From a virus: a stretch of 64,000 nucleotides of DNA. Below the pieces are notes generated by a model. The model was not told the DNA's origin. It did not search any database and was given only the letters and a program-made list of their open reading frames with translations. Each line of letters starts with the position of its first letter. Position 1 is the stretch's first letter. The position numbers and the translations under genes were made by a program. Of this stretch, positions 29,586 through 44,840 are shown piece after piece. Location: IMG/VR virus record IMGVR_UViG_3300021185_002806; one strand, given 5' to 3'.

Positions 29586-29900
29586 TTAGTCCGCCGGTTC
29601 TAATGTTACCGTCAATGGGTAACCATGCGCCCTACTTGCTCCGTGAGTCTCTTCCACCTTTTGTTCTGCTATTTCTAAGTTAAACATACCAACTATAGCT
29701 TTATCATCTACGTGAATTTTGTTTGCCAAGTCTTCTGCGGTCTGTTCATCATGCCTGTATAATTCGATTAATAATCGCACAACGAATTCAATTGGAGTAC
29801 CATCATCATTGTGCATAACAACATAGAAACGCTTTGGCGGTTCTATTACTGTTTTTGTTGTAGCATCAACAATAGTATCTGTTTCGTTGCTTACTTGCAT
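29586..29900 (-). CDS. clpS: Clp protease adaptor ClpS
   Basis: VVMHNDDGTPIEFVV, IHVDDKAIVG, YPL. Confidence 0.92.
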   Translation of the reverse strand: MQVSNETDTIVDATTKTVIEPPKRFYVVMHNDDGTPIEFVVRLLIELYRHDEQTAEDLANKIHVDDKAIVGMFNLEIAEQKVEETHGASRAHGYPLTVTLEPAD

Positions 29901-29934
29901 TATTTACCTCACTATCTTTTAAGTATTTATCTGA

Positions 29935-29963
29935 ATTATAGCACCATTACAGAAGTGAATCAA
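29935..29963 (-). promoter_or_regulatory. Sigma70-like promoter for clpS (GATAAATA also at 29924-29931)
   Basis: TTGATT-N17-TATAAT with extended TG. Confidence 0.6.
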
Positions 29964-30810
29964 GTCTTTTTTGATAATTACTTAACATGTCTTCTATGTG
30001 CTCCATATCCTTTGATACAGCAATCTTTTCTGCTTTTGTATGTATCTTCTTAAATTTGTTACCAGTAAAGTTTATATCTTCATACTTTACTATTTTATTT
30101 ACTTTATCACCCAATGTTTCCAGTAATTTAATGTTTATCTCACAACATCTATGGACCCACTCATATGGAGTAGGTTGATGCATTTTTCTTTTAATGTTTG
30201 GATTGAAACTTATATTGCATTCACTTATTGATGTAGAAGTTTCATCTGTACTAGCCTTATGATAAACCATCGTAAGTTGTGCAACTATTTCACTTAGTGC
30301 ATTATCTAAAGGATCTCTAATCAATATGTGATGTTTGGTATCGTACTTGATATCCTCGAATGCAATTCTTGGATTAAGTTTAGCATCATAATCATACAAT
30401 TTGATTGCCTCGGATACTCTTGCCAACTTAAGCAAATTCGTTATTCCATCTAAATGATTTTTTATGTACCACATTGGAATAGTTCGATTATAGAACGGAG
30501 TAATACCATTTTCGGTAGATTTCCAATCAGTCCAAACCCATTCATCATTATGATTATCTAAATGATGCGTAATATTATTTGGTTCATTGTCACATTTCCA
30601 CTTAAATTCATTATCAAATGGATGACTTGCTTGATATTCAGAGTTATTAGTATTGGGATTTTCCTCTTTGCATATCGACGGCCATGCACCATGTACAGAC
30701 ATAATCTCTTGTGCTAAATCAGATTTAACTTGTCCAGTTGTTTTTAAGTAATTACAGTATGCAGATGATCCCGACCTTGGTTGACACCATACTGTTATGT
30801 GCTTTGCCAT
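29947..30810 (-). CDS. Sulfotransferase-like protein
   Basis: QPRSGSS 5'-PSB-like loop; LIRDPLDNALS; YED. Confidence 0.65.
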   Translation of the reverse strand: MAKHITVWCQPRSGSSAYCNYLKTTGQVKSDLAQEIMSVHGAWPSICKEENPNTNNSEYQASHPFDNEFKWKCDNEPNNITHHLDNHNDEWVWTDWKSTENGITPFYNRTIPMWYIKNHLDGITNLLKLARVSEAIKLYDYDAKLNPRIAFEDIKYDTKHHILIRDPLDNALSEIVAQLTMVYHKASTDETSTSISECNISFNPNIKRKMHQPTPYEWVHRCCEINIKLLETLGDKVNKIVKYEDINFTGNKFKKIHTKAEKIAVSKDMEHIEDMLSNYQKRLDSLL

Positions 30811-30832
30811 TATAATGTCCTTATCATCTGGT

Positions 30833-30857
30833 TAGAAGCGAGGAAACCTCGCTTCTA
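30833..30857. terminator. Perfect 11-bp hairpin downstream of hsp20
   Basis: TAGAAGCGAGG-AAA-CCTCGCTTCTA. Confidence 0.55.
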
Positions 30858-30878
30858 TTTATGAAGTAATATTTTCTA

Positions 30879-31322
30879 CTATGAGATTTCAATACTACGA
30901 GGCTTCTTACCTTCTGGAACGATACGTTCTAAAGATATTTTCAGTAACCCGTCTTTCAACTCGGCACCTTTCACTTCAACATCATCTGCAATAGTGAATG
31001 CTTTAGAGAACATTCTTTTAGAGATACCTCTGTGAAGAACACCGTCTTTATCATCATCTGATTTTTCTTTCTTAACAGATTTAACTGTCAAAATGTTATC
31101 AGCATAGTCAACTGTAATATCATCTTTTGAGAATCCAGCTAATGCTAGTTCTACATCATAAGTGAAATCTCCAGTCTTTACGATATTGTAAGGTGGGAAG
31201 TTTACTTGGGTTTGAAATGTTGCAACATCGCCATCGAACATACGTTCAAAATGGTCAAACATGTTGTCAAAGCCTACAGTTACAGGTCGTAACTGGTTAA
31301 AAATAGATAGTCCGTTTGTCAT
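30879..31322 (-). CDS. ibpA: Small heat shock protein Hsp20 (IbpA-like)
   Basis: FPPYNI, ALAGFS, HRGIS, AELKDGLLKI. Confidence 0.95.
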   Translation of the reverse strand: MTNGLSIFNQLRPVTVGFDNMFDHFERMFDGDVATFQTQVNFPPYNIVKTGDFTYDVELALAGFSKDDITVDYADNILTVKSVKKEKSDDDKDGVLHRGISKRMFSKAFTIADDVEVKGAELKDGLLKISLERIVPEGKKPRSIEIS

Positions 31323-31326
31323 TGTT

Positions 31327-31381
31327 AACTCCTTTGTTAAGCAAGTTGATTAAAGTGTAGACCCTATCAAGCAATCTACAC
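31327..31381 (-). promoter_or_regulatory. ROSE-like RNA thermometer in hsp20 5' UTR
   Basis: AACUUGCUU pairs with AAGGAGUU (SD) leaving a bulged G; upstream GUGUAGA/UCUACAC hairpin. Confidence 0.7.
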
Positions 31382-31414
31382 AGTTATTTATGCACACTAT
31401 TGTACATATATACT

Positions 31415-31443
31415 AATATAATGATTATTTATGGAAATGTCAA
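31415..31443 (-). promoter_or_regulatory. Sigma70-like promoter for hsp20
   Basis: TTGACA-N17-TATATT. Confidence 0.65.
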
Positions 31444-31694
31444 GTCTTTTTCTCAAGTTTTTCTGAAAAAAGTTCAATTCCCTTAGATGGTCCCGCATCC
31501 CGCGGCAATCCACCATATTTTCCAATATAATCTTCAAGTACTGCTTTATACCAAAGTTGGCTATTGTGGTGTGCTTTTTTGTTATATTTTGAGATACCAA
31601 CACTTGTTCCATCCTGAGTAAGCAATGCTCTTGTGCTTTCTTGTTGCAATTCTCTTAGTGTTAATTTTTCTAAATCTATATTCAATTTATTCAT
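31440..31694 (-). CDS. Hypothetical protein
   Basis: AAAGGATG start context. Confidence 0.55.
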   Translation of the reverse strand: MNKLNIDLEKLTLRELQQESTRALLTQDGTSVGISKYNKKAHHNSQLWYKAVLEDYIGKYGGLPRDAGPSKGIELFSEKLEKKT

Positions 31695-31754
31695 CCTTTG
31701 TTCATATTTTGATAAATAACATTATAATCAAACACATTTAGGAGGCCACCTATT

Positions 31755-32072
31755 ATGATTAAAGAAACCAAAGTATTTTACCCACATATTGTAAAACAGT
31801 ATGATGATAATGCACAACTGATTTCTGAGAATAATTATGATACATATTATTCACTAATGAGAACAATTCTTTCCGATAACGGAATTGACTTGACTGATAA
31901 TACTAAGTATAAAGAAGATTTGACTACTGATAAGTTCGAAGGCAAAATTACTATTGTTTATCCAAACAATGAAACTATGACTGCTATCGAAACTGCTATC
32001 GGTTCTCAAATGTCTTCTTTTAGCGACAGTCAACCAATCTTTGAAGAATTCTCTGATAATCATTTGTTCTAA
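31755..32072 (+). CDS. Hypothetical protein (late promoter)
   Basis: GATAAATA at 31711; AGGAGG RBS. Confidence 0.7.
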   Translation: MIKETKVFYPHIVKQYDDNAQLISENNYDTYYSLMRTILSDNGIDLTDNTKYKEDLTTDKFEGKITIVYPNNETMTAIETAIGSQMSSFSDSQPIFEEFSDNHLF

Positions 32073-32091
32073 TACAAAATAATCATGAAAT

Positions 32092-32120
32092 GAAAAGGTC
32101 GCTTTATGCGGCCTTTTTTT
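32092..32120. terminator. Bidirectional terminator
   Basis: AAAAGGTCGC-TTTAT-GCGGCCTTTTTTT between convergent genes. Confidence 0.75.
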
Positions 32121-32400
32121 ATTCCAATTCTTGTGTTCTTTGTTTTCTATACCAACGCTTCTTTCCGGCATCCCGTGCTTTACGTTTAACCTCACTTGGT
32201 TTCACATAAGCAGTACGGTCACGAACCTCTTGTATAATGCCTGCATCTTGTACTTTCTTTTTGAACTTACGTAATGCTCTTTCAAATTGTCCGTTTCTTA
32301 CTTCTACTGTTAGACCCGACTTATTAGTTTGTGAAAAGTCGTTTCTATCGTTTGATTTATATTGTCTATTCTTATTATAACTATTATTGTAACTAGTCAT
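32119..32400 (-). CDS. rpsU: Ribosomal protein bS21 with N-terminal extension
   Basis: VEVRNGQFERALRKFKKK...YVKPSEVKRK. Confidence 0.92.
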   Translation of the reverse strand: MTSYNNSYNKNRQYKSNDRNDFSQTNKSGLTVEVRNGQFERALRKFKKKVQDAGIIQEVRDRTAYVKPSEVKRKARDAGKKRWYRKQRTQELE

Positions 32401-32938
32401 TTTTTATTATTACACCTATTATCCTATTCCCGTTTGTTTTTAGAGGGAGGTCGTATTTGAAACTACTCAAATACTCAGAGATTTGGGAATTAAAGAACTC
32501 TAACACATCACTTGCCTTAGAATTTTCCCTGCCCCTCATTTGTACTGTCACTTTTACTTTATTGCCTTTATCAATAAACTTTTGAACTTGGTTAAGTTTC
32601 ATCTTTAGGTCGTTCTCACCTATAGCTGGTCTAAACTTAACTTCTTTAACTTCAACTGAATTTTGTCTGGCTAGTTTTGCCTTCTCTTTTTCACGTTTTT
32701 TGATTTCGTAATTGTACTTATTTATACTAATGATTTTTGCAACTGGCGGCTTTGCATCTGGAACAATTAGAATCAAATCTAATCCTTCTGAATCCGCTTT
32801 TTGCTGTGCTTCTTGTTTTGATAAGACACCAAGTTGTTCACCGGTGTCTGTGACTACACGTAATTCATCTGCACGAATACGTTGATTGGCTACAACGAAT
32901 GGCTTTCGCCCTCGTTCTTCCTTAAAGTTTTTCTTCAT
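32393..32938 (-). CDS. infC: Translation initiation factor IF-3
   Basis: NQRIRADELRVV, LDLILI..AKPPVAKI, KEVKFRPAIGEND, KVKVTVQMRGRE. Confidence 0.95.
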   Translation of the reverse strand: MKKNFKEERGRKPFVVANQRIRADELRVVTDTGEQLGVLSKQEAQQKADSEGLDLILIVPDAKPPVAKIISINKYNYEIKKREKEKAKLARQNSVEVKEVKFRPAIGENDLKMKLNQVQKFIDKGNKVKVTVQMRGRENSKASDVLEFFNSQISEYLSSFKYDLPLKTNGNRIIGVIIKND

Positions 32939-34196
32939 TCGTTCCTGTTGATTCCCCTATTTCTTCTGTAAATACCAAAATCGGTTCTTTGTTATGTTTA
33001 ATAAAATCACCTGTAATTTCTACTGATACAAGCCCTTGTTTAGCAAGTTTAGGCAACTTGAATTGTAATTTCAATAGTGATTTTTCTAACACACTCCTAA
33101 GACCTCTTGCTCCTGTCTTATTTGATTTTGCTATTTCAGAAATCTCATTTATTGCATCTTTAGTTAAATTTAACTCAACTCCATCTAATTTAAAAATCTT
33201 CTTAAATTGTGCCATTAGATTGTTTTTAGGCTCAGTCAATATACGACTTAGTTCATCTTTAGTTAAGTCGTTGATACCTACTAGTATTGGAAAACGTCCC
33301 ATGAACTCTGGTATAATACCGTATCGGATTACGTCTTCTGGTAATACTTCTTCTGATACTCTCATATCATCTGCCGAGTCTTGTGCCATAACTCTTGCGC
33401 CGAAGCCAATTGAACCATTGGCATTTAATCTTCGCTTGATTACTTTATCAAGACCAACAAAGGCGCCGCCGACAATAAACAGGATTTTGCTTGTATCAAC
33501 TTCAAGCATTTCTGCGCCAGGATGTTTTCTTCCACCACCCGGTGGAACACGTACAACCGTACCTTCAACAATTTTTAATAGGGCTTGTTGAACACCTTCA
33601 CCACTAACATCTTTAGTGATAGAGATACTTTCACCCTTCTTTGCTTTTTTATCGATTTCATCAATATAGATAATACCTTGTTCTGCTTTTTTAATATCAA
33701 AGTCTGATGCCATAAGTAAACGTTGTATTACATTTTCAACATCTTCACCTACATACCCACTTTCTGTTAGGGTAGTTGCATCTACTTGTGCGAAAGGAAC
33801 ATCTAAAAATTTTGCGATAGTCTTACCTAAGAGAGTTTTACCTGTACCACTTGGTCCAAGCATCATTACGTTAGATTTCTCTAACTCTACTTCATCATCA
33901 TCTTCTGGTAAATTAATTCTTTTATAGTGGTTGTAAACAGCAACACTCAAAACTTCTTTAGCTTCATCCTGACCAATTACATGAGCATTTAAAAACTCAT
34001 TGATATCCTCAGGAGTTGGAATATCGCTGTTTACTTCTGTTGTCTTGTTATCTACGCTCTTACGTTCATGGACGATAGAATGACAAAGGTCAATACACTC
34101 GTTACAGATATACGTTGCCGGTCCTGCAATTAAGGTGTTGATTTCATTCTTATGCTTTCCACAAAATGAACAATGATAATCTTTTTTATCGGACAA
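32922..34196 (-). CDS. clpX: ATP-dependent Clp protease ATPase subunit ClpX
   Basis: CSFCGK zinc domain, GPSGTGKT, GYVGEDVE, DEIDK, IGFG loop, GARGLR; TTG start. Confidence 0.97.
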   Translation of the reverse strand: MSDKKDYHCSFCGKHKNEINTLIAGPATYICNECIDLCHSIVHERKSVDNKTTEVNSDIPTPEDINEFLNAHVIGQDEAKEVLSVAVYNHYKRINLPEDDDEVELEKSNVMMLGPSGTGKTLLGKTIAKFLDVPFAQVDATTLTESGYVGEDVENVIQRLLMASDFDIKKAEQGIIYIDEIDKKAKKGESISITKDVSGEGVQQALLKIVEGTVVRVPPGGGRKHPGAEMLEVDTSKILFIVGGAFVGLDKVIKRRLNANGSIGFGARVMAQDSADDMRVSEEVLPEDVIRYGIIPEFMGRFPILVGINDLTKDELSRILTEPKNNLMAQFKKIFKLDGVELNLTKDAINEISEIAKSNKTGARGLRSVLEKSLLKLQFKLPKLAKQGLVSVEITGDFIKHNKEPILVFTEEIGESTGTNEEKL

Positions 34197-34213
34197 TTTT
34201 TATACTTTCTCTA

Positions 34214-35746
34214 TTAATTGTTATTATTCAAACCATCAAGCCAGCCTGATTTCTTTTCTGCTTTAGTATTTATTTCCCTTTCAACCTTTGATTTAATTTC
34301 TTTCAATGATTTTTCATCAACATTTTTTAAATCAATTTCTGCCGGGTCTAAATACACGCCACCTGCTTTGCTTTCTGTTTTAACTTCTTCCACATCATTA
34401 GTTTCTTCTATAACTTCTTCTAAATCACTATCACTATTATCGCTCATTGAGGTCGTTTTGTCAAGCGTTTTCTTTTCAGATTTTGAAAATAGTGTGTCTA
34501 GGATTTCATTCTGTCTTCCTTCATGATTGTTTCTGTTAGCAAAACTATAGTTTGCCGCAATCAATAGAATAACTGCTAATGGGTCGAATACAAAAATAAA
34601 GATAATAATTAACCAACGTACTGCTTCATCAATAATAGTAGGAGTGGTTTCCCCATATACTAATTCTGCAATGTACTTAATTGGTCCAACTTCTGCTTCA
34701 AGGGCCCTTACTTCACTTTCTAATTCGAATTTCTCATCATAGAGATTTTCGATGGTCTGTTCCGTTTCTGACACTTTTAAAACTAAAGCGGTTATCTCAT
34801 CCGTATTGTCTATTTCTCCAACTTGTGTTAGGAGATTTCGTAGACGATTAATATTATCTTGTGCATTTTGAATTTCTCTGTCTGCCATGCCACGCAAACG
34901 TTTTATTTCTTCACGTGCTTGGTCGATAATATCTGTGTTTACTGAATTACGAATATCCTCAACGATAGCAATAAGTCTGTCTTTTTCTGAATTTGATTTT
35001 TTAATAAATTCAGTAACTTTGCCAGCAGTGATATATCCGTATTTTCCATCTACTTTTGTACCAATCATAGCCTGTATCTTTTTCACATTATTTTCATCAT
35101 CTACATTCTCAGCATAAGATTGTATCTTAGCAAGAGTTTCGTCAATTCGAACAATCTGTTCAGTATACGACTTTACTTGATCCTCAGAACCTCTTTGTTC
35201 TTCTTTAACAATGTCTAACTGTTCATCAATCGCAGGCTGAATACGTAAGTATGCATTATCCATACGTTGTTGTTCAGCATCAATCTGACTATTGATATCA
35301 GATGAATCATCACTAGTTTCGTTATCAAGTTTAGCTATTTTTATTTCAGTACGTTCTATTAATGAATTAAATCTGATAATATCATTGTCAATACGTTCAA
35401 CCTTTGCTACGTTAGCCGTTCCCTGTGCGGCTTGTTCTAGGTGTGCTTTCGATAAGAAACCGAAAATACCCATGCTTGTGATGAACATCAAAACGACAAC
35501 TGCTATTGTCAAATAAAATTTTAATAGAAATGGAGCCCTCTTCCAATTACGGTACACCCACGATGCGGCTATAAGTTTGCCTATTTCAAGTGAACCCGCC
35601 ATTAATGCTACTGGTACCGCAGAGGCGGCAAAAATCGCCATGAGTCCGACGATTGAAAACCAGGCGGCTATAAACGCAATAGCAATAGCCGTAGCAAAGG
35701 TAATAATTGGAAATAACATAATCTTCTCCTTCTTAGTAGACCTCAT
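34214..35746 (-). CDS. Membrane protein with long coiled coil and peptidoglycan-binding-like motif
   Basis: 3 N-terminal TMs (ITSMGIFGFLSKAH), EVGPIKYIAELVYG, FVFDPLAV TM; likely start near 35719. Confidence 0.8.
   Translation of the reverse strand: MRSTKKEKIMLFPIITFATAIAIAFIAAWFSIVGLMAIFAASAVPVALMAGSLEIGKLIAASWVYRNWKRAPFLLKFYLTIAVVVLMFITSMGIFGFLSKAHLEQAAQGTANVAKVERIDNDIIRFNSLIERTEIKIAKLDNETSDDSSDINSQIDAEQQRMDNAYLRIQPAIDEQLDIVKEEQRGSEDQVKSYTEQIVRIDETLAKIQSYAENVDDENNVKKIQAMIGTKVDGKYGYITAGKVTEFIKKSNSEKDRLIAIVEDIRNSVNTDIIDQAREEIKRLRGMADREIQNAQDNINRLRNLLTQVGEIDNTDEITALVLKVSETEQTIENLYDEKFELESEVRALEAEVGPIKYIAELVYGETTPTIIDEAVRWLIIIFIFVFDPLAVILLIAANYSFANRNNHEGRQNEILDTLFSKSEKKTLDKTTSMSDNSDSDLEEVIEETNDVEEVKTESKAGGVYLDPAEIDLKNVDEKSLKEIKSKVEREINTKAEKKSGWLDGLNNNN
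34436..34464 (-). promoter_or_regulatory. Promoter-like element inside CDS, upstream of clpX
   Basis: TTGACA-N17-GATAAT. Confidence 0.5.
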
Positions 35747-35809
35747 CTGTATTTATCTAATTAAGAAGGAGAATTTAACTTCTATGTTATACTTTCGTAT
35801 AGATTGTAG

Positions 35810-36325
35810 TTAATTTAGTGTTGTAGTAACGTTTAAAAACGCTATAGTTCCGACTTTCCATTGGTCTTTAGTCTGATATACATAACTATTACCATTAGAT
35901 GTTTGGAATGTAGTGTTGTAACCTACAGTTTTGTTTACTACTGTTTCGATATAAATTACATCACATTGTTGCACTTGCTTGTAACCAACAACTACTTGTT
36001 GTGATTTATTTTTATTGGCAGTATCCGCACCTATGATGGCACCTAATGCAGTTGCGGCATCTTTACCCTTACCGCCACCGAATTGATTACCGATTACACC
36101 ACCGATAATTGCACCGAATAAAACATCACCTGTACTTGCAGAACTTTGCGTTCTACCATAAATAGGAACATCTACTGTTCTACATTGCTGTGAAGGTGTC
36201 TTTTGTACTACTTGTTGAGTAATTGCAGTACTATCTGTTACCTCTGCTTGTACTCTTGTTGAATTCGCTTGTGCAGTTGAAACTAACATCAACGAACTAA
36301 TGATTGCTACTATAAACTTATTCAT
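35810..36325 (-). CDS. Secreted glycine-zipper 2TM domain protein
   Basis: Signal peptide; GAIIGGVIGNQFGGGKGKDAATALGAIIG. Confidence 0.85.
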   Translation of the reverse strand: MNKFIVAIISSLMLVSTAQANSTRVQAEVTDSTAITQQVVQKTPSQQCRTVDVPIYGRTQSSASTGDVLFGAIIGGVIGNQFGGGKGKDAATALGAIIGADTANKNKSQQVVVGYKQVQQCDVIYIETVVNKTVGYNTTFQTSNGNSYVYQTKDQWKVGTIAFLNVTTTLN

Positions 36326-36359
36326 CTTATATCCTCTCGTATGATTAATAATTACTTAC

Positions 36360-36388
36360 AGTATACACGTTTTAGGTGGATTTGTCAA
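36360..36388 (-). promoter_or_regulatory. Sigma70-like promoter
   Basis: TTGACA-N17-TATACT. Confidence 0.7.
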
Positions 36389-36427
36389 GTTTTTTATGTA
36401 GAAAAAAGTGAGATAATATAGGGATTT

Positions 36428-37360
36428 TTAGATATATTTGGTGATTTTTCTACCACCTTTTGGGTATACTGAGAAACGTGCGCCTTTTACACCGAAGTTA
36501 TCTCTATCACCTTTGTACATCGCCATTAATACTGGTTCGAATTCGCCTTCTACACGTTCACCATTTGAGTGATGTGGTCCGGTTGATACAAGTTTGTTAC
36601 CTTTAAATACTGGATCGCCTTGTAATACTAAGTCAACATTTTGCTTACTAGGTTCACCTTTAAACCCAATACCATAAATTGCTATACCTCGTAATATACC
36701 ATTTTTAATTTCTCTTGCATATGTAGTTGCTCTTGGGATTTGACCATCTGTCATATCGATTACTGTCTTAGCAAATGCAAGAATTTCTTCTTTTGCTTCT
36801 GGAAATCTTTCGTATACAGTTTTCATTTCTCTGTCACTCATACCGCCCCATTGTCCAAAATCTTTTGCACGTGAACCTTTCTTATGAGATATCCAAGCAA
36901 CTTCATTACCTGAGGCATCCACTGCATGAAAGTCAGACTTAGGTGTTCCAGGAGTTGTGACAAACTTAGCAACATTAACTATTCTACCGCCAATGTCTAG
37001 TTGTATTTCTGCCTTATCACCTTTTAATTTTGCAAACATTTCACCAATACTACCAAGTGCCGCATCCTCATCACGTGTAGAAAAACCTGCGCCTTTGCCT
37101 CCAAATTCACTTGTTTTTTCTAAACTTGTAAGTCGTACTACTCTTCCGTCGTGTGTTGCAAATTTATCAGGTATAATACCTTGCTTTAGATTAGCTAGAA
37201 CTTCATCGTCTTTTTTTAATTTAATCGTAGGCTTATCACCACCTAATGCTACAAACAGTTGTCCTGTTTCGTATTTTCGAATAAAGTTGGCTAGTCTCTT
37301 ATTATCTTTAATAAGATCCTTTTTAGTAAGTTTACCTTCTATGATATCTGAATAACGCAT
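36428..37360 (-). CDS. Putative virion-packaged protein with PD-(D/E)XK-like motif
   Basis: MRYSDIIE leader; TPKSDF...WISHK...FGQWGG. Confidence 0.6.
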   Translation of the reverse strand: MRYSDIIEGKLTKKDLIKDNKRLANFIRKYETGQLFVALGGDKPTIKLKKDDEVLANLKQGIIPDKFATHDGRVVRLTSLEKTSEFGGKGAGFSTRDEDAALGSIGEMFAKLKGDKAEIQLDIGGRIVNVAKFVTTPGTPKSDFHAVDASGNEVAWISHKKGSRAKDFGQWGGMSDREMKTVYERFPEAKEEILAFAKTVIDMTDGQIPRATTYAREIKNGILRGIAIYGIGFKGEPSKQNVDLVLQGDPVFKGNKLVSTGPHHSNGERVEGEFEPVLMAMYKGDRDNFGVKGARFSVYPKGGRKITKYI

Positions 37361-37391
37361 ATATGTATTTATCATTTATGTTACAGATACA

Positions 37392-37530
37392 AATGGAAAA
37401 CCCACTCCGAAGAATGGGCTCCATTAAAATTTGTTTTGTGGAATGTCAGAATGTGTTACGCAGTGTCCGACACACTTATACCTTTTTTAAAATCCTATGC
37501 GTACTTAGTTATTAGTTTTGTTCTATAAAG
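37392..37530 (-). ncRNA. Candidate late small RNA with pseudoknot and C(UUCG)G hairpin
   Basis: Follows GATAAATA (37532-37539); no convincing ORF. Confidence 0.4.
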
Positions 37531-37542
37531 TTATTTATCTTC

Positions 37543-38474
37543 TTAGTGCAAACCGTTAGGAACGATTATATAGTGAATAGATAAAACTACACCAACACTT
37601 GCACCTAAGCCAATCATCATCTTTATGAAGTCTTTGGTCACAAGAGGGAAAACAGTTTTAAACTTTTCTTTACCAGTAATTGTTGCCATAGCAAGTTCAC
37701 GACCACAATTGGTATATCATTCAGTTCCTTGAAGAACCAAAGAATTAGAAAATATACACAATCAATTATTGTAGCACTTCTTACATAACGTGTATTATGT
37801 TTTTCAATTACGATGTTTTGTATTTTACCACCACCAGTATAAAATATATAACCTAAGCCAAATACAAATACTGCACTTACCATTACCATTAAATCAAATG
37901 GGATTTGTCTTGGTAAGAATACGGCAATGTTTGCCATATCATGTGATAACCAAGTGAACCATAAAAAGCCAGTTGTTATCCACTGACCTACTCGCCAATA
38001 CATTTTATGATTTTCAGCGACTGGTTTTGCTTCGTCAAGTATTTTAGTAACACCAATCCAGATTACATATGCCGCCACAGCCGCAACTGCATAACCCATC
38101 ATTGATTTGACTAGCATCTTCTCTAATATAAATGTACTAGCAAATGCACTTAACACTAAGAAACTTGTACTTACTGGTACACCTATTCTTGTTAATATCA
38201 ATAGTAAGCCTGGTGCGGCGGCATGATACCATTGAATCTCTTGAAATGGAATTTTGTTTAATCGTCCGTAACTAATATCTCCACCATTAGTTGTCCAACC
38301 ATACCACAAAGTATAAAGCAGTACCGCACTTGCGGCTCCCCACATTATCTTCCAATTAAATTTTTCGTTATTTGATGCAATCCAAGTACCAAGAGTTTGT
38401 ACTGAATCGTTTGCTATTACTGAATATGCGGCAAATAGAAAACCTATTGCCATCCATAGGGTGAGTGCATCCAT
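37543..38474 (-). pseudogene. Multi-TM membrane protein (PiT/PHO4-like ANDS motif), frameshifted near 37708
   Basis: IANDSVQTLG, PVSTSF, HDMAN; after ELNDIP the hydrophobic C-terminus CGRELAM...IVPNGLH continues in another frame to 37543. Confidence 0.65.
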
Positions 38475-38644
38475 TTTTTATCTCCTTCTGCTTAACGTCT
38501 TTACCACGTTGCTCACATAATTAGACCAGGCTCGATTGATGCCTGGTTGTAACCTTATTGTTACTTTCATATTTATGAATGTAACACAAAAAAGATATTA
38601 AATCAATACACTTTTTAATTGAGTTGTTGATAAGTTGGGGAAAT

Positions 38645-38709
38645 AAAAAAGAGACAGTCAGCAATATAAAATGAAAGTGAGTAAAATATGGTTTGCCAAC
38701 CGTCTCTTA
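38645..38709 (-). terminator. 16-bp hairpin with 28-nt loop plus U-tract
   Basis: AAGAGACGGUUGGCAA pairs with UUGCUGACUGUCUCUU. Confidence 0.5.
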
Positions 38710-38742
38710 ATTTTTGATTACTTGGTATTGTAATCAGAAAAT

Positions 38743-38959
38743 ATAAGCAAAGTAGGAGGGACTTGGTTACACCCCCAACCCCTCGACACAGATACCATTC
38801 TGAATCCAGGGAACCTAGTTCCGTTCGGTAGAACGATGTGACTCTTAGCCTCTCAGCTTTGAACCTGGGTACCACCCCTAACTAGTCAAGTTCGACCGTC
38901 TGGTAACAGCCTCTTCCTTGCACTACAATCATTGAGTCGCTAAACTCTCTGATGCTTAT
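38743..38959 (-). ncRNA. Large structured ncRNA, manA-motif-like
   Basis: GC-rich island; AUAAGCA/UGCUUAU terminal stem; GUGCAAGGAA...GGUGGUACC; dedicated promoter. Confidence 0.7.
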
Positions 38960-38965
38960 GTTATT

Positions 38966-38994
38966 AATATAGCATAATGATTCGGTATTGTCAA
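38966..38994 (-). promoter_or_regulatory. Sigma70-like promoter for the ncRNA
   Basis: TTGACA-N17-TATATT with extended TG; predicted +1 at 38959. Confidence 0.75.
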
Positions 38995-39002
38995 CAACTT
39001 TT

Positions 39003-39725
39003 TTAATTTTTTTTAATATAAATTAAATCAGCCCAATCTGTACGACCATTCATTGGGTTTTTACTAACATGTGCGATATCGAATAATTCAAAACCCAAGG
39101 GAATCAGGGTTTTTTCTATATCATAAAAACTACACTGCTTTTCATATAAGTCATAAAATGATAATTCAGTAAGAACGATTCGGGTATTCTTTAGTGTTTC
39201 AATTCCATTTTCTAATATCTCTGGTTCGGCTCCCTGAGCATCCATTTTAATCATATCTATGTAATCTATATTATTTTCACTTGTAAATTTATCTAACGTT
39301 ATAACTGGAAATTGTATAGTTTCAGATTCTAAGAAATTCTTATGGGCTTTCTCTGGTTTATTGATAGCAATACTATCCTTGCTGTCTGCATTTAATTTAT
39401 AAAATCCACTGAGCATAGGCTGGTGTTTATTAATATTAAAATCTTGCCAACCATTTGTTGAACCAATTGCTGTATTATATACATGAACGCCGGGTAATCT
39501 ACCTTTTGTTAAGTATAATTGTTGATATGCATCTGGTAAAGGCTCTATAGAATGTATTACTGCATGTTCCCATATAGTCTTTAACTTATCTACTGTTTGT
39601 CCTATATTTGCACCAATGTCTAATATTATGGGAGTATCAGTTCCAACTAAGTTTTGCAAAACTTTGTTTTTATCAAACTTAGAAAGATAATCTTTTGTTC
39701 GTTGATTACTATTTTTATACTTCAT
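39003..39725 (-). CDS. FkbM family methyltransferase
   Basis: LDIGANIG, IEP, TLD, KMDAQGAE. Confidence 0.9.
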   Translation of the reverse strand: MKYKNSNQRTKDYLSKFDKNKVLQNLVGTDTPIILDIGANIGQTVDKLKTIWEHAVIHSIEPLPDAYQQLYLTKGRLPGVHVYNTAIGSTNGWQDFNINKHQPMLSGFYKLNADSKDSIAINKPEKAHKNFLESETIQFPVITLDKFTSENNIDYIDMIKMDAQGAEPEILENGIETLKNTRIVLTELSFYDLYEKQCSFYDIEKTLIPLGFELFDIAHVSKNPMNGRTDWADLIYIKKN

Positions 39726-40279
39726 ACGATTACTGTCCTATCTCTCCAGGTTTCATCACAATAGTTTACAATAATACTTACTCTGTTGTTTAGCAAAGGC
39801 TTCAATCCATGTAGTTCTGTTCCAGTATTTGCAAAGAACCAACCAGAATTCTTTCTAGCAGGAGTATTTGTTTTCATGAAACTTGTACTTGTGTCTGTGT
39901 CTGATAGGTATATCTGTAAAGTAAATAGTTTTGCTTTATCATCAAAATGATTATGTAACCAACTTCCTTTTGCATCTTTGCATAGTTCGATTCGTGTGCC
40001 TAAATTTGTAAAGTCTTTTTCACAAATTTCACTAAACTTTTCTTTCATAAGTCTACTGTCAAAATATTCACAAACTTCTAGGAAAGACGAATGACTTGAC
40101 TGGTTCATCCAGTTTCTCTTGCCCGTCTTGTCTGTACGTTTGCCTTCCATTGGAATAAATGGCAAATCATTAGACTGTTTTAATACTGCATCCTCAAGAC
40201 CTAATTTGAATACATCTTCCACTACCCAAACAGGATAACCATAATCTTTTTTAGTTATTATCATAATACTAACTCCCAA
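39722..40279 (-). CDS. 2OG-Fe(II) oxygenase
   Basis: HFD...LQIYL...HG...RVSIIVNY. Confidence 0.78.
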   Translation of the reverse strand: MGVSIMIITKKDYGYPVWVVEDVFKLGLEDAVLKQSNDLPFIPMEGKRTDKTGKRNWMNQSSHSSFLEVCEYFDSRLMKEKFSEICEKDFTNLGTRIELCKDAKGSWLHNHFDDKAKLFTLQIYLSDTDTSTSFMKTNTPARKNSGWFFANTGTELHGLKPLLNNRVSIIVNYCDETWRDRTVIV

Positions 40280-41208
40280 AATCCATTATTATTTCTGAGT
40301 ACTGTGCTACCGTTTACTTTTACTTCATTGCCTACCTTTTCATAACAACGAGGTGGCATATAAGTAGTAGGTTTAGCTAAGTTTACTGTTATAGCGGCTC
40401 CCTGTACTTCTCTATATTTAGCCCTTGTATTTTTAGGAGATAATGTTCTAGTGACTGAGCGTGGACTAAAATCATCATTACCTGTATAGCCCAGTGATAA
40501 TTTTCTCCCTGTAACATCAAATTTATGTAAATGCATTTCATCAACCATTGGATAAAATGATTTTATATAACCATTTGAATAATCTGTTATGATTGCGTTT
40601 ACTTTGCCTTCATATACATTTGCTAATTGCATTCTTGTGTTACCAGGATGTAATTGCCATCTGCCACGTACTGTTAAATGACTAAAACATTCTTGTTGCA
40701 TTTGTTCTATATGGGCTTTCCATCTTGTTTTTGCAATGCCGGTATTAAATGTAGGTTCAAATTGAGTTATGGGTCTTGTAGGTTTCTGTTCCGCCACTAT
40801 ACCGGGCATATACCAATCAGGAAACCAAACTAAATTTAAAGGGTCATATATTTTTTGGCCATTTCTTAATTCTTCTAATATGTGATAAAACGCATTTGGT
40901 TTGGTTAACAAATCATCACGTGAATGTTCAGTGTTAAGCCAATCTTCATTGCTCCAAACTTTATTACTATTAGAAAATAATTCATCTATTACATGTACAA
41001 TACTGCCATGTATATTACGGCGAATGCCATCATCATCAAATCCAAAAAGATTTATCCATATATCTTTTATTGTGCCTCGATATATCCAGGTCTTTTGCCC
41101 TGACTCTGCATCTGCACGTTTAGTTACAGTTAGATAATGTTCGTATGAAGTTAGGTGTCTGTGGGACCAATTAGGTGCTTCTTTCCAAAGACTTTCGTTA
41201 TCAGTCAT
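40261..41208 (-). CDS. Hypothetical protein
   Basis: Long coupled ORF; HPGNTR motif weakly ParB-like. Confidence 0.6.
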
Positions 41209-41539
41209 AATCGTCTAACAACTTTGTCTTATCTCCTGTATATCCCATTGCAGGGTTTAGTGAGTCTGCATCTGGAAGAGGGTCTTCTCTCTCTGTAATG
41301 ACAGGCCATTGCTGTGACCATTTCTCATTTATATCATACAACCGTTGCGTGAACAATGGCGATGTATCTGGAATGATTGCATCTGCTGGACACTCTGGTT
41401 CGCACACACCACAGTCAATGCATTCGTCTGGGTTAATTACTAACATATCTTCGCCAACGTAAAAACAATCTACTGGGCAAACTTCAACACAATCAGTATA
41501 TTTACATTTAATACAATTCTCGTTTACTACGTATGCCAT
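41201..41539 (-). CDS. fdxA: 7Fe-type ferredoxin
   Basis: [18 protein letters not shown]...[12 protein letters not shown]. Confidence 0.95.
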
Positions 41540-41569
41540 ATATTTTCTTTATTAACCCCAAATTAAAAT

Positions 41570-41830
41570 ATGACTTTTCTGTTGCCAGGTAAGCCATCAA
41601 CCCCTACGTGCTTAAAACTAAGCCGCTAATGCCATTTCTGGCTCATAATTTGCGTTTGCAATTATAGTTTTTGACCAATAACGCAGTCATCCGGTAAACT
41701 CCACTTCACTTTCGCACCTGTCGATCCTAGTTCAGCCCCATCATAAAAACATTCAGTAAATGTGCTTATGGTGGAGCTGTGGGGTACTGCCCCCCAGTCC
41801 AGAATACGTCTACGTTGCTTCAACGTCTAC
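41570..41830 (-). ncRNA. ssrA: Circularly permuted two-piece tmRNA; tag (A)ANANYEPEMALAA
   Basis: Acceptor piece ...GGGGCAGUACCCCACAGCUCCACCA ends at 41769; 29-nt spacer; coding piece GGGGCUGAACUAGGAUCGAC starts at 41739; G3.U pair; tag ORF 41659-41618; outer ends approximate. Confidence 0.93.
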
Positions 41831-41835
41831 AATAT

Positions 41836-41866
41836 TATTTATACACGATAAACGTATATAAGTCAA
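41836..41866 (-). promoter_or_regulatory. Overlapping early and late promoter for tmRNA
   Basis: TTGACT-N17-TATAAA, whose -10 is part of TATAAATA. Confidence 0.6.
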
Positions 41867-41874
41867 TACATTAA

Positions 41875-42231
41875 TTAAAATGTAATTGATGTTCCGATTA
41901 CTGATTCAGTTCTTTCGAATGAATCGTTCAAATCATTTTTAAGATAAATTGTTACATTATCTTGTAGCGGGAATGAAAAGTTTAACATTTGCTTGTTCAA
42001 ATCTAAAAAATCTTTTCCATCAGCATCGATGTCCCATTTTGCACCGTAAGATGCAGTGATACCAAATAGTGGTTTTGCTACTGAAAACTCACCGTTTTGT
42101 GTATTTGCCTCAATCGCTCTTTCAAGTGATAGAGAAAACGTCATATCGTCTGATACAGACGTTCCTTCAGCCATCGCTGATGTTGTAAATAAGGCCGCAA
42201 CTAGCAGACCTGTTAGTGTTACTTTTTTCAT
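41875..42231 (-). CDS. Secreted outer-membrane beta-barrel-like protein
   Basis: Signal peptide (AMA), alternating beta strands, C-terminal Phe. Confidence 0.6.
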   Translation of the reverse strand: MKKVTLTGLLVAALFTTSAMAEGTSVSDDMTFSLSLERAIEANTQNGEFSVAKPLFGITASYGAKWDIDADGKDFLDLNKQMLNFSFPLQDNVTIYLKNDLNDSFERTESVIGTSITF

Positions 42232-42282
42232 AAGTAGTCCTCCTTAAAAAAAATGCTACCCAACTCGGGTAACATAAGTTGT

Positions 42283-42311
42283 ATTATAGCACAAGTAAAT
42301 TCCAGTGTCAA
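42283..42311 (-). promoter_or_regulatory. Consensus sigma70 promoter
   Basis: TTGACA-N17-TATAAT with extended TG. Confidence 0.8.
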
Positions 42312-42689
42312 CTACCCAAAGAAGAAAAAATGAAAATAACCATCATTTTTCAACCAAGTAATTAAGGCACTCATTATCCCGCAAGCCATAATGTACAAGA
42401 CAGTTTTCACTGTCCAATGTTGTCTTCCTGACCATCTTTTAACTTTGTTATCAGACCTACTTGCTTTATCCATAAGTTTGTCTTCAATGCTAAAAGGTGG
42501 AGTTTTTAAAAAAACAACAAAACTAAAAAACAGCATCCACCAATATTCATCCCAGTTTGTAACTACCATGAATGCAACCATTCCCAGTAAATACCAACCT
42601 ATTTGTTTTCGTAAATGCTCCCTAAAATATATGATTAGTCCCGAAGTAATGATTAAACTTACTGCAAGGTAAAATAAAAATAAATCCAT
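42312..42689 (-). CDS. Membrane protein
   Basis: Multiple TMs. Confidence 0.6.
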   Translation of the reverse strand: MDLFLFYLAVSLIITSGLIIYFREHLRKQIGWYLLGMVAFMVVTNWDEYWWMLFFSFVVFLKTPPFSIEDKLMDKASRSDNKVKRWSGRQHWTVKTVLYIMACGIMSALITWLKNDGYFHFFFFG

Positions 42690-42732
42690 AACTTCGCCTT
42701 TTTCTTTCCTGTTTATTTATCTATATCAGTTT

Positions 42733-42972
42733 CTATTCTTCTTTTTCTGATATATATCTTTTTTCCATTTCTTCTTTAATATCGACAACTTTTTCCTGAG
42801 TGATTATATTAATAATCGTTTCTGTTAGATTTTTTTCTCTACGTAGCCAATATAGTTTTTCTTCAATCTTTTTGAGTTCCTTTTCATAAAAGTGAATTTC
42901 ATCTTCTTTTCTTTTGCTCTGGTCTAAAAACTCAGACAAAAGTATTAATCTAGGTGGGACTGTATTTTCCAA
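42733..42972 (-). CDS. Hypothetical coiled-coil protein
   Basis: Coupled ORF. Confidence 0.6.
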   Translation of the reverse strand: MENTVPPRLILLSEFLDQSKRKEDEIHFYEKELKKIEEKLYWLRREKNLTETIINIITQEKVVDIKEEMEKRYISEKEE

Positions 42973-43162
42973 TTAATTCCTCATACGCTTTCTCAAATCC
43001 TTCTTCATATTCTTCTAAACATTGGGATTCGTTATTCCATAATCTTCTAAAATAGCTATCGTGCATAGCTATTATTTCTTTATCTTGCCATGTATGACAA
43101 CCTAAATGGCCTTTTACAAGCCAAAATCTTCGATATGCTTCTTTTCGAAAACTAGGTGTCAT
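42950..43162 (-). CDS. Hypothetical protein
   Basis: YRRFWLVKGHL...YFRRLWN. Confidence 0.6.
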   Translation of the reverse strand: MTPSFRKEAYRRFWLVKGHLGCHTWQDKEIIAMHDSYFRRLWNNESQCLEEYEEGFEKAYEELIGKYSPT

Positions 43163-43179
43163 ACAAGAAGTTCACAATC

Positions 43180-43341
43180 TTACTCTGATTTCCAGATTGT
43201 CCAAACACCCCAAGCTACAGCAATACCTGCCGCAATCTTGGCTAATGGTGCCATGAATAGAATCATTAATCCTAGTCCGATACATACTGCACCGTCCCAT
43301 GATGTTCTTTCTTTTGTTCTATCTTTTATCCATTTCATCAT
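43180..43341 (-). CDS. 53-aa 2-TM membrane protein
   Basis: Manual translation MMKWIKDRTKERTSWDG...WTIWKSE; AAGGAG RBS. Confidence 0.65.
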   Translation of the reverse strand: MMKWIKDRTKERTSWDGAVCIGLGLMILFMAPLAKIAAGIAVAWGVWTIWKSE

Positions 43342-43398
43342 ATTAATCTCCTTATTTTAAGAGTATTGACATAATACCCTATTGTATTTAGTTGATTT

Positions 43399-44328
43399 TT
43401 AGTTAGTTTTGTGCATTTCTGAGACCAATAACTGTCCCAATATTCTCTGAGCGGTAGCATTATAATGCGTACCGTCATGCCATGACATATGCTCTCTTAC
43501 TGCATACTTATCTTTGTTGTCGCCTACACCTGTAAAAAATGCATCTTTGTGTGTCTTACATACACTATGTAAGTAATCTGATATTGAGTATATGGACCTA
43601 TTATGTATTGCTTTTCCAAATACATCTTTACTAAGAGCATTAATGTGATTAATACTTAGGTAGTTAGCAAATGTAGGTTCATCTTCTATATTTTCCATCC
43701 ACTCTCTAAAGTCTGGTATAATATCTAAATTATGCCAATGTGTTGATCCTTGGCCTATTCTAAATTTGTTTTTTAGTTTATTAACTCTAATATCCATAGG
43801 ATCAAATGAATGAAATACTAAGTGTGGTAAGTTTCTATACTTCAATACTGAACTTAAATGCTTTCTAAATAGCCAGTTTTTGAATGTCATATTAATCTCA
43901 GTATTAATTTCTGTGTAAAAACTCTCTATTGCTTTTGGTGAAATATTATGTGGGTGCGATGCATTAAAAACTTCTAACGAATCAACATTAAGTCTCTTAT
44001 CGCCATAATCTTTTACTTTTTTAAAGAATATTTCTCTTTGTGGATCAGCTAAACTGAATAATATAAAAACATTCTCGCCTTTGTTTTTGTCTAACCAAGT
44101 ATTCATATTAAGTAATGCAAGTTCATTACTGCCTGCAGGTGTACCTAAGTTAACAACTTTTCTAAACTTTAAACGTTTACCAACATGTGAAGTATAAGAA
44201 AGTTCATTACATGCATTGCGCCAAACTTCTCTTTCTTCTGGACCACCTGTATAATCAGCAATAGTACCCTGACCAAATGTAAAACTACATCCTAAACTTA
44301 ATAATGTATAGTTAGAATAATCCATCAC
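43399..44328 (-). CDS. SGNH/GDSL-hydrolase-like protein
   Basis: GCSFTFG, NLGTPAGSN, DGTHYN. Confidence 0.65.
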   Translation of the reverse strand: MMDYSNYTLLSLGCSFTFGQGTIADYTGGPEEREVWRNACNELSYTSHVGKRLKFRKVVNLGTPAGSNELALLNMNTWLDKNKGENVFILFSLADPQREIFFKKVKDYGDKRLNVDSLEVFNASHPHNISPKAIESFYTEINTEINMTFKNWLFRKHLSSVLKYRNLPHLVFHSFDPMDIRVNKLKNKFRIGQGSTHWHNLDIIPDFREWMENIEDEPTFANYLSINHINALSKDVFGKAIHNRSIYSISDYLHSVCKTHKDAFFTGVGDNKDKYAVREHMSWHDGTHYNATAQRILGQLLVSEMHKTN

Positions 44329-44840
44329 TTGTCCTTGTTCTTTTTCTTAATTCTTTTTATTTTTTCTCTACGAACTGCCTGGGCTCTACTTAATTGGCTT
44401 GTCTTTGCTCTTTTATCAAATGTTATGCCCATCAAGTGGTCATGTTCATGTTGTATTGCTTGGGCCCATACGCCATTAAATAACTGTGTCTTTGTTTCAC
44501 CTTTTAGATTAGTGAATGTACAATGTACCTGATTGTATCGTTCTATTGTTAGTGCTAGATGTGGAAAACTTAAACAGCCTTCTTGGAATGATTCTAATTT
44601 TGCTTCTGTTGTTGGTGCCCATGTTGGGTTTATACAAACAACAAAACCAACATCTTTGTGTCCTATAACAAATAATTGTTCCATAACACCTAACTGTGGT
44701 GCCGCTAATCCTATACCATCGTGTTCTTGCATTTTTGCAATCATATCATATACTAGGCCTTCAGTCGCCGCATCTATTTCATGTTTAACACAAGTTTGTC
44801 TTAATCTTTTATCTGTTTCACTAATCAACTCAAGTTGCAT
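44325..44840 (-). CDS. def: Peptide deformylase
   Basis: GIGLAAPQLG, EGCLS, QHEHDHLMG. Confidence 0.96.
   Translation of the reverse strand: MQLELISETDKRLRQTCVKHEIDAATEGLVYDMIAKMQEHDGIGLAAPQLGVMEQLFVIGHKDVGFVVCINPTWAPTTEAKLESFQEGCLSFPHLALTIERYNQVHCTFTNLKGETKTQLFNGVWAQAIQHEHDHLMGITFDKRAKTSQLSRAQAVRREKIKRIKKKNKDK

Follow-up and report, generated by a model that had tools for sequence, protein, structure and literature searches.

The locus described here raises the question of whether phage genes for protein degradation and for the start of translation, kept side by side, act with partners of their own or with those of the host. The analysed stretch, called the window, comprises 64,000 nucleotides of the IMG/VR virus record IMGVR_UViG_3300021185_002806. 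The genes in question, clpX, infC, rpsU, hsp20 and clpS together with a transfer-messenger RNA (tmRNA) gene and def, were located between positions 29,586 and 44,840. We consider it fairly probable that they constitute an inherited block serving proteostasis and the start of translation, which would use ClpP and ClpA encoded by the phage itself and SmpB from the host, would have canonical specificities and would keep ribosomes and amino acids available during infection. The block appears to have been inherited vertically in a jumbo/huge-phage lineage of Alphaproteobacteria. As its genes belong to three unrelated bacterial operons and stay joined over deep divergence, it offers a handle on how phages take over or support translation and proteolysis.

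Conserved order of the block genes

The original prediction named seven features, and profile and covariance searches found all of them intact on the minus strand. They are listed here together with orf510:

34214..35746 (-), orf510, virus-only membrane protein directly upstream of clpX; translation probably begins at M10 (35719)
32922..34196 (-), clpX, TTG start; zf-C4_ClpX and AAA_2 domains, NF003745 568 bits (cut-off 359)
32393..32938 (-), infC, initiation factor 3 (IF3), ATG start; IF3_N and IF3_C domains, TIGR00168 143.8 bits (cut-off 60)
32119..32400 (-), rpsU, ribosomal protein bS21; PF01165 56 bits (cut-off 27), TIGR00030 61.3 bits (cut-off 28.95)
30879..31322 (-), hsp20, IbpA-like small heat-shock protein; PF00011, 1.7e-17
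29586..29900 (-), clpS; PF02617, 3.3e-23, 81.7 bits (cut-off 23)
41567..41883 (-), tmRNA, two-piece permuted alpha-type, found with Rfam and ARAGORN; tag ANANYEPEMALAA
44325..44840 (-), def, peptide deformylase (PDF); PF01327, 1.2e-35, 122.9 bits

The co-occurrence of these genes was surveyed in 80 related IMG/VR viral contigs, the ClpX of which is 48-88% identical to that of the window. The window proteins were compared with these loci by tblastn, and the upstream and downstream counts take only the loci with enough flanking DNA, 76 and 74, respectively. The survey bore out the predicted co-occurrence for the core five genes, which were syntenic over a deep phage clade. The gene orf510 was found upstream of clpX in 72/76 loci; downstream of clpX, clpS was present in 71, hsp20 in 70, rpsU in 60 and infC in 54 of the 74 loci. 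The order clpX, rpsU, hsp20, clpS was the same in 55/55 scorable loci, which indicates a clustering far beyond chance. The full conserved order is membrane protein - clpX - (infC) - rpsU - hsp20 - clpS, and clpS begins a median of 1.6 kb after clpX ends.

The identities of the block genes decreased along with the ClpX identity (Spearman 0.54-0.75), and few flanking genes were left at ClpX identities below 60%. In the most distant bin (ClpX identity below 52.5%, 32 loci) the block was still present, while almost none of the 14 flanking genes were detected, the exception being one FkbM-type match. The reading frames of clpX and infC overlap by 17 nt and those of infC and rpsU by 8 nt, and an overlap of rpsU with whichever gene precedes it was kept in the relatives, even in those lacking infC. 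In bacteria, the genes have their homes in three separate operons, clpP-clpX, infC-rpmI-rplT and rpsU-dnaG-rpoD, therefore the arrangement was put together in phages.

The same conservation could be expected of an early-gene neighbourhood in which independently useful auxiliary genes have remained adjacent for historical reasons and form no circuit. We regard this explanation as conceivable and rather unlikely. It would agree with the tmRNA gene and def being fixed neither in position nor in presence, with the lack of infC in about a quarter of the loci, and with a hsp20 slot that has seemingly been exchanged between clades; moreover, the textbook partners of ClpS are ClpA and ClpC, and it is not known to act with ClpX. 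However, a mere neighbourhood does not readily account for a block which outlasts its neighbours over deep divergence, maintains its overlapping frames and holds genes of three separate bacterial operons adjacent in phages. The proximity of bS21, Hsp20 and Clp genes has also been seen independently in published phage genomes (PMC9723584).

Two comparisons concern the hsp20 slot itself. The window hsp20 was 72-82% identical to the hsp20 of a distant clade (ClpX 53-58%; comparison of loci L006-L026) and just 38-43% identical to the same-slot hsp20 of a nearer clade (ClpX 65-70%). The higher identity to the distant than to the nearer clade suggests that hsp20 was exchanged or replaced within the slot.

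The phage nature of the DNA follows from the viral contigs carrying its relatives, from a tape-measure-like gene and PHROG matches in the window, and from the clpX-infC pair that it has in common with the cultured Agrobacterium phage Atu_ph07 and Sinorhizobium phage Phosso. The ClpX proteins of these two phages are the nearest among cultured phages, with about 53% identity. The viral contigs with ClpX relatives measured 518 kb at most, and some had terminal repeats. An origin from a bacterial chromosome was considered and is ruled out by the viral relatives and the phage genes. The guanine-plus-cytosine (GC) content around the block is about 35%, and almost every gene lies on the minus strand. 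Public assemblies contained the identical ClpX protein in 227 blocks, among them a 301.5-kb marine ENA scaffold, which points to an abundant ocean phage.

Functional residues and the tmRNA tag

The proteins of the block were compared with bacterial family profiles and structures. ClpX, IF3 and bS21 scored above the NCBIfam equivalog cut-offs. ClpS was above the Pfam cut-off and below the NCBIfam equivalog cut-off (74 vs 143), and PDF passed the Pfam cut-off with a borderline TIGR00079 score (103.2 bits vs cut-off 103.95); these two proteins are therefore divergent members of their families. Both domains of IF3 were recognized (N-domain, PF05198, 2e-24; C-domain, PF00707, 2.7e-19). The start codon of infC is ATG in the window and in most relatives, whereas that of bacterial infC is typically AUU. 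The window bS21 has a 30-aa N-terminal extension rich in N, K, R and Y, and similar, often shorter, extensions were present in most relatives.

The Cys4 zinc-binding domain of ClpX (PF06689, 2.8e-16) contains C9, C12, C31 and C34, which were invariant in 24 phage sequences. In the alignment with E. coli ClpX (8e91_A), the segments GPSGTGKT, GYVGEDVEN, IYIDEIDK, GGRKHP and GARGLR were kept, and the phage enzyme thus retains the Walker A and B motifs, the GYVG pore loop, the RKH loop and sensor-2. The phage segment SIGFGA aligned with E. coli GIGFGA and had its G and F invariant in the clade; it is the predicted IGF loop for docking on ClpP. The zinc-finger, Walker, GYVG, RKH, IGF and sensor-2 positions were invariant or nearly so in the 24 phage ClpX sequences.

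In ClpS, the pocket residues N, D, T and H, corresponding to E. coli N34, D35, T38 and H66, were kept and were invariant or nearly invariant in 66 phage ClpS sequences. The residues contacting ClpA (E. coli E79, E82 and K84) were also kept. The gatekeeper Met40 is replaced by Ile in the window and was M, F, I or V across the 66 sequences. All three catalytic motifs of PDF, GIGLAAPQ, EGCLS and HEHDH, were present.

The tmRNA gene was detected by two covariance models, RF01849 (alpha_tmRNA, 127.6 bits, gathering 50) and RF04321 (tmRNA_permuted, 121.4 bits, gathering 47), and ARAGORN likewise identified it as permuted. The boxes TTGACT-17-TATAAA and TATAAATA were situated just upstream of the gene. 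The alanine identity pair G3:U70 was present and was invariant in 11 aligned phage tmRNAs, in which compensatory changes were found at 9/20 predicted pairs, including pairs of the T-arm and the acceptor stem. The possibility that the gene is a remnant of an integration site was ruled out, as the gene is complete, has promoter boxes of its own and shows covariation.

The presence of tmRNA, def and the Clp and SmpB proteins was searched in up to 19 long related records, three of which are complete. The permuted tmRNA was found in 12/19 of the records and in 3/3 complete genomes, always on the clpX strand and 8-26 kb upstream of clpX (about 8 kb in the window). Its inclusion in the predicted gene set was thus upheld, the tmRNA being a regular companion of the block. 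The case of def was mixed: the gene itself was confirmed, about 10 kb upstream of the block, but its linkage is loose, as it occurred in 8/19 records and at variable positions.

The phage tags end in (L/M/I)AA, as in ANANYQPEMAMAA, ANNNRAPEMALAA and ADENLALAA. Bacterial genomes were scanned with a tmRNA pattern which reaches only genomes sharing the same acceptor stem, and almost only Alphaproteobacteria were matched. The tags closest to those of the window clade were from marine Rhodobacteraceae, namely Planktomarina (ANDNKAPMALAA), HIMB11 (ANDNRAPVAMAA) and Yoonia (ANDNRAPMAMAA). Since the scan is restricted by its pattern, this likeness is a lead to the host and does not assign one.

The special specificity of ClpX and ClpS presumed by the original prediction did not find support. 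The RKH, GYVG and IGF loops and the ClpS pocket are standard and the tag terminus is host-like, and on the level of the sequence there was no sign of altered specificity.

Sources of ClpP, ClpA and SmpB

The original prediction further assumed that the phage provides only the specificity parts and combines them with ClpP, ClpA and SmpB of the host in order to re-aim degradation and initiation. No clpP, clpA or smpB was detected among the window open reading frames scanned, which were part of those in the 64 kb, and in so far the earlier remark that none is seen there was consistent with our scan. True ClpP, defined by a score above 200 bits, was nevertheless found in 9/19 related records, including the closest complete relative and the closest fragment. 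The closest complete relative is a 342.6-kb genome with terminal repeats and a ClpX identity of about 87%. Its ClpP scored 267 bits against solved bacterial ClpP structures and had the Ser, His, Asp triad in place. A weaker ClpP-like gene, which is probably a prohead protease, was also common in the records. The closest complete relative in addition encodes a ClpA-like protein of 738 aa with an end-to-end ClpA match (902 bits), and a similar protein was present in a 518-kb genome, which brings the complete genomes with a ClpA-like protein to two. In the latter genome (G003, the record of locus L070), def was situated directly beside the clpA-like gene at 485.7-488.2 kb, an arrangement in which N-terminal processing is paired with the partner of ClpS.

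An abundant ClpP sharing 93% identity with the one in the closest complete relative was detected on marine contigs of at least 200 kb from the same sample series as the exact ClpX. Protein clusters and exact look-ups did not reveal a contig linking this marine ClpP with the exact ClpX. In the marine relatives (L108-L123), the ClpP gene was on the opposite strand, between genes for a gp25-like baseplate protein and a phage lysozyme and away from clpX.

SmpB was found in 0/19 related records, including the 3 complete genomes, and SspB in 0/5 related records searched; both searches gave a signal in control bacteria. As the phage tmRNA is not accompanied by a phage SmpB, host SmpB would have to serve. 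The phage would thus rely on the host mainly for SmpB, and would further require the alanyl-tRNA synthetase (AlaRS) and RNA-processing enzymes of the host. Of the cores said to be borrowed from the host, SmpB was supported, whereas ClpP and ClpA found no support, as relatives encode both.

Taken as a whole, a phage equipped with specificity parts only appears distinctly unlikely. The lack of clpP, clpA and smpB among the scanned window frames and of SmpB in all the records would fit it, and the feeding of host ClpAP by phage ClpS has been proposed by Iyer et al. (PMC7824862). It is opposed by the canonical ClpP of the closest complete relative and of 8 other records, by the ClpA-like proteins of two complete genomes and by the 93%-identical marine ClpP. 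Further, the specificity determinants are canonical and the tag terminus matches bacterial tags. That the phage redirects initiation and degradation would be a reading of the gene set, and it has already been voiced for IF3 and bS21 (PMC7162821).

The preferred reading, an inherited block with canonical specificities and its own ClpP and ClpA, would operate in five steps. Firstly, host AlaRS and host SmpB would load the phage tmRNA, which would free ribosomes stalled on broken messages and add a host-like ...(L/M)AA tag. Secondly, phage ClpX would dock by its IGF loop on ClpP, probably one that the phage encodes, as the nearest complete relative does, and would degrade tagged proteins along with other substrates. 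Thirdly, ClpS would deliver N-degron substrates to ClpA-ClpP, with ClpA supplied by the phage in close relatives and by the host in the rest. Fourthly, Hsp20 would hold unfolded proteins. Finally, phage IF3 and the extended bS21 would re-equip the freed 30S subunits for phage messages, and PDF would process the new N-termini. As a net result, the translation capacity and the amino-acid supply would be sustained through a long infection by canonical, not re-aimed, specificities. In this corrected picture the phages would be near self-sufficient in Clp proteolysis, with SmpB conspicuously not encoded.

Several points weigh against this reading. A complete 452.8-kb relative has ClpX and ClpS without true ClpP or ClpA, so that dependence on host cores is found within the clade, as the original prediction would have it. 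The clpP and clpA of the window's own phage are deduced from the relatives, and every functional step of the block proteins is what we infer from their sequences. The synteny may reflect history and not functional coupling; the loss of the flanking genes was scored by tblastn, with which fast-evolving neighbours may be missed. The promoters and the terminator given below are consensus or hairpin matches alone.

Layout of the clpX unit, related phages and neighbouring elements

The remaining features of the region, in the order of the minus strand, are as follows:

36360..36388 (-), putative sigma70-like promoter, TTGACA-17-TATACT, 11/12 consensus match; precedes the glycine-zipper gene, orf510, clpX, infC and rpsU
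35810..36325 (-), glycine-zipper 2TM small membrane protein, the first gene past the promoter; kept in closer relatives only
32090..32118 (-), putative terminator, a GC-rich hairpin between runs of A and T, immediately past rpsU
31755-32072 (+), 105-aa gene with an invariant AGGAGG ribosome-binding site, between rpsU and orf84
31440..31694 (-), orf84, small conserved protein between rpsU and hsp20; in 25/74 loci
31415..31443 (-), putative sigma70-like promoter, TTGACA-17-TATATT; precedes hsp20

From the sigma70-type promoter to the hairpin, the gene for the orf510 membrane protein and those for ClpX, IF3 and bS21 seem to be translationally coupled as a single unit. Stems differing from the hairpin of the window occupied the same place after rpsU in the relatives. 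The 105-aa plus-strand gene was present in the window and in the four close relatives that were aligned (L001, L002, L004, L005), and a 287-aa insertion between hsp20 and clpS was restricted to the closest relatives.

The early type of the sigma70-like promoter bears on the idea that Clp and Hsp20 serve mainly virion assembly, as unfoldases and chaperones of large capsids, or replication control in the manner of lambda O/Mu, and not the quality control of translation. Such a role has been proposed for Atu_ph07 and Sinorhizobium phage AP-J-162, where clpX is near topoisomerase genes (PMC6102473, PMC11242549), and Iyer et al. suggest ClpA and ClpX as assembly translocases (PMC7824862). T4-type late boxes TATAAATA were also found before hsp20 or clpS in many relatives. 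In contrast, no topoisomerase gene was detected next to clpX in the window or in the marine relatives, and the constant partners of the block are IF3, bS21 and tmRNA, not structural genes. Together with the early-type promoter of the clpX unit, this makes a main role in assembly or replication very improbable.

The distribution of the late box was also determined. In the window, TATAAATA was depleted, with 6 found vs 13 expected, and sites were located at 32719-32726 and 41836-41843 (-). In most relatives (loci L001-L055), the box was situated about 30 nt before the tmRNA gene. Several clades have a copy within infC that precedes rpsU by 316-326 nt, and in 18 loci a copy precedes hsp20 by 60-99 nt. 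Late transcription may also apply to parts of the block.

The product of orf510 begins at its N-terminus with three transmembrane helices, which are followed by a coiled-coil hairpin of about 250 aa, one more transmembrane helix and a disordered tail. Its AlphaFold2 (AF2) model was all-helical, with a mean predicted local distance difference test (pLDDT) score of 75. The transmembrane block was 56-63% identical even where the ClpX identity was about 50%, and many tails ended in basic-x-(G/S)-W-(L/F/I). The positive-inside rule would place the hairpin in the periplasm and the tail in the cytoplasm. No match to orf510 was obtained in Pfam, NCBIfam or PHROGs, the matches in Atlas were virus-only unnamed clusters alone, and Foldseek returned generic coiled coils only. 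It could be imagined that the whole block is one machine, in which orf510 localises or regulates ClpX, and ClpXP and ClpAPS clear host initiation components or ribosome-bound factors, the place of which is taken by phage IF3 and bS21 on tmRNA-freed ribosomes; we find this highly doubtful.

The gene set as such is already known in large phages, and the window block is another instance of it. Atu_ph07 was reported in 2018 to have seven Clp proteins, including ClpX, ClpA, ClpB, ClpP and ClpS (PMC6102473), and in AP-J-162 (2024) clpX is beside the IF-3 gene, with tmRNA, Hsp20, S21 and PDF also present (PMC11242549). ClpP, ClpS, ClpX, ClpA and IF3 were described in jumbo phages by Iyer et al. (PMC7824862). 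Among the genes of huge phages, Al-Shayeb et al. (2020) listed IF3, S21, PDF, tmRNA and SmpB and proposed redirected initiation (PMC7162821). Hsp20 (n=127) and Clp genes (n=50 and 47) were tallied by Chen et al. (2022) at a distance of up to ten genes from phage bS21 (PMC9723584). What is added here is the depth of the synteny and the exact order, the translational coupling, the conserved upstream membrane protein, and a tmRNA that is regularly paired with the block and yet SmpB-less. Phage bS21 was reportedly also the subject of a study by Mizuno in 2019.

The closest cultured comparison is with the soil phages Atu_ph07, AP-J-162 and Phosso, which are jumbo phages of 'group 2.2' of Iyer et al. 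and make experimental testing feasible. The kinship, compared by these two traits alone, consists in a ClpX identity of about 53% and infC immediately downstream. The soil phages also carry ClpA, ClpB, ClpP, ClpS, Hsp20, S21 and PDF, and AP-J-162 tmRNA as well (PMC6102473, PMC11242549); their hosts are alphaproteobacterial, and the phage GC content is far under that of the host. In contrast to the compact orf510-clpX-infC-rpsU-hsp20-clpS arrangement of the window's marine clade, rpsU is about 7 kb off in Phosso, and hsp20 and clpS are elsewhere (clpS by gene number, PMC6102473). Topoisomerase genes are upstream of clpX in the soil phages, at the place of orf510 in the window clade.

With the huge phages and the bS21 literature, the window shares IF3, PDF, tmRNA and a bS21 with a basic/aromatic N-terminal extension (PMC7162821), as well as Hsp20 and Clp genes among the neighbours of phage bS21 (PMC9723584). 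Some published phages encode SmpB along with tmRNA, unlike the 19 related records searched here. In the Bacteroidetes phages of Chen et al., bS21 is in the structural-gene region and late, whereas in the window it follows a sigma70-like promoter in a coupled arrangement with clpX and infC. Compared with bacterial trans-translation, ClpXP and ClpAPS (E. coli, Caulobacter), the ClpX motifs, the ClpS residues, the G3:U70 pair of the tmRNA, the ...ALAA tag and, judged from the ClpP of a relative, the ClpP triad are alike. The phage differs from the bacterial systems in lacking SmpB and SspB in the records searched, in uniting genes which stand in separate operons in bacteria, and in the ClpS gatekeeper, where Met is Ile in the window phage and M/F/I/V in the clade.

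Three further elements were noted upstream of the clpX unit. At 42253-42311 (-), just before orf118, a TG-extended sigma70 promoter that matches the consensus perfectly (12/12) has a hairpin and a T run no more than about 10 nt behind it; the element may be an attenuator or give a very short transcript. A manA RNA motif at 38746-38994 (-) scored 55.5 bits vs the gathering score of 55.2 and has its own TTGACA-17-TATATT promoter; its DNA was 75% identical to an unannotated stretch of Pelagibacter phage Mosig. The tmRNA gene is directly followed, at 41201-41539 (-), by a gene for an FdxA-type 4Fe-4S ferredoxin, which was conserved with 53-87% identity in about 24/80 related loci.

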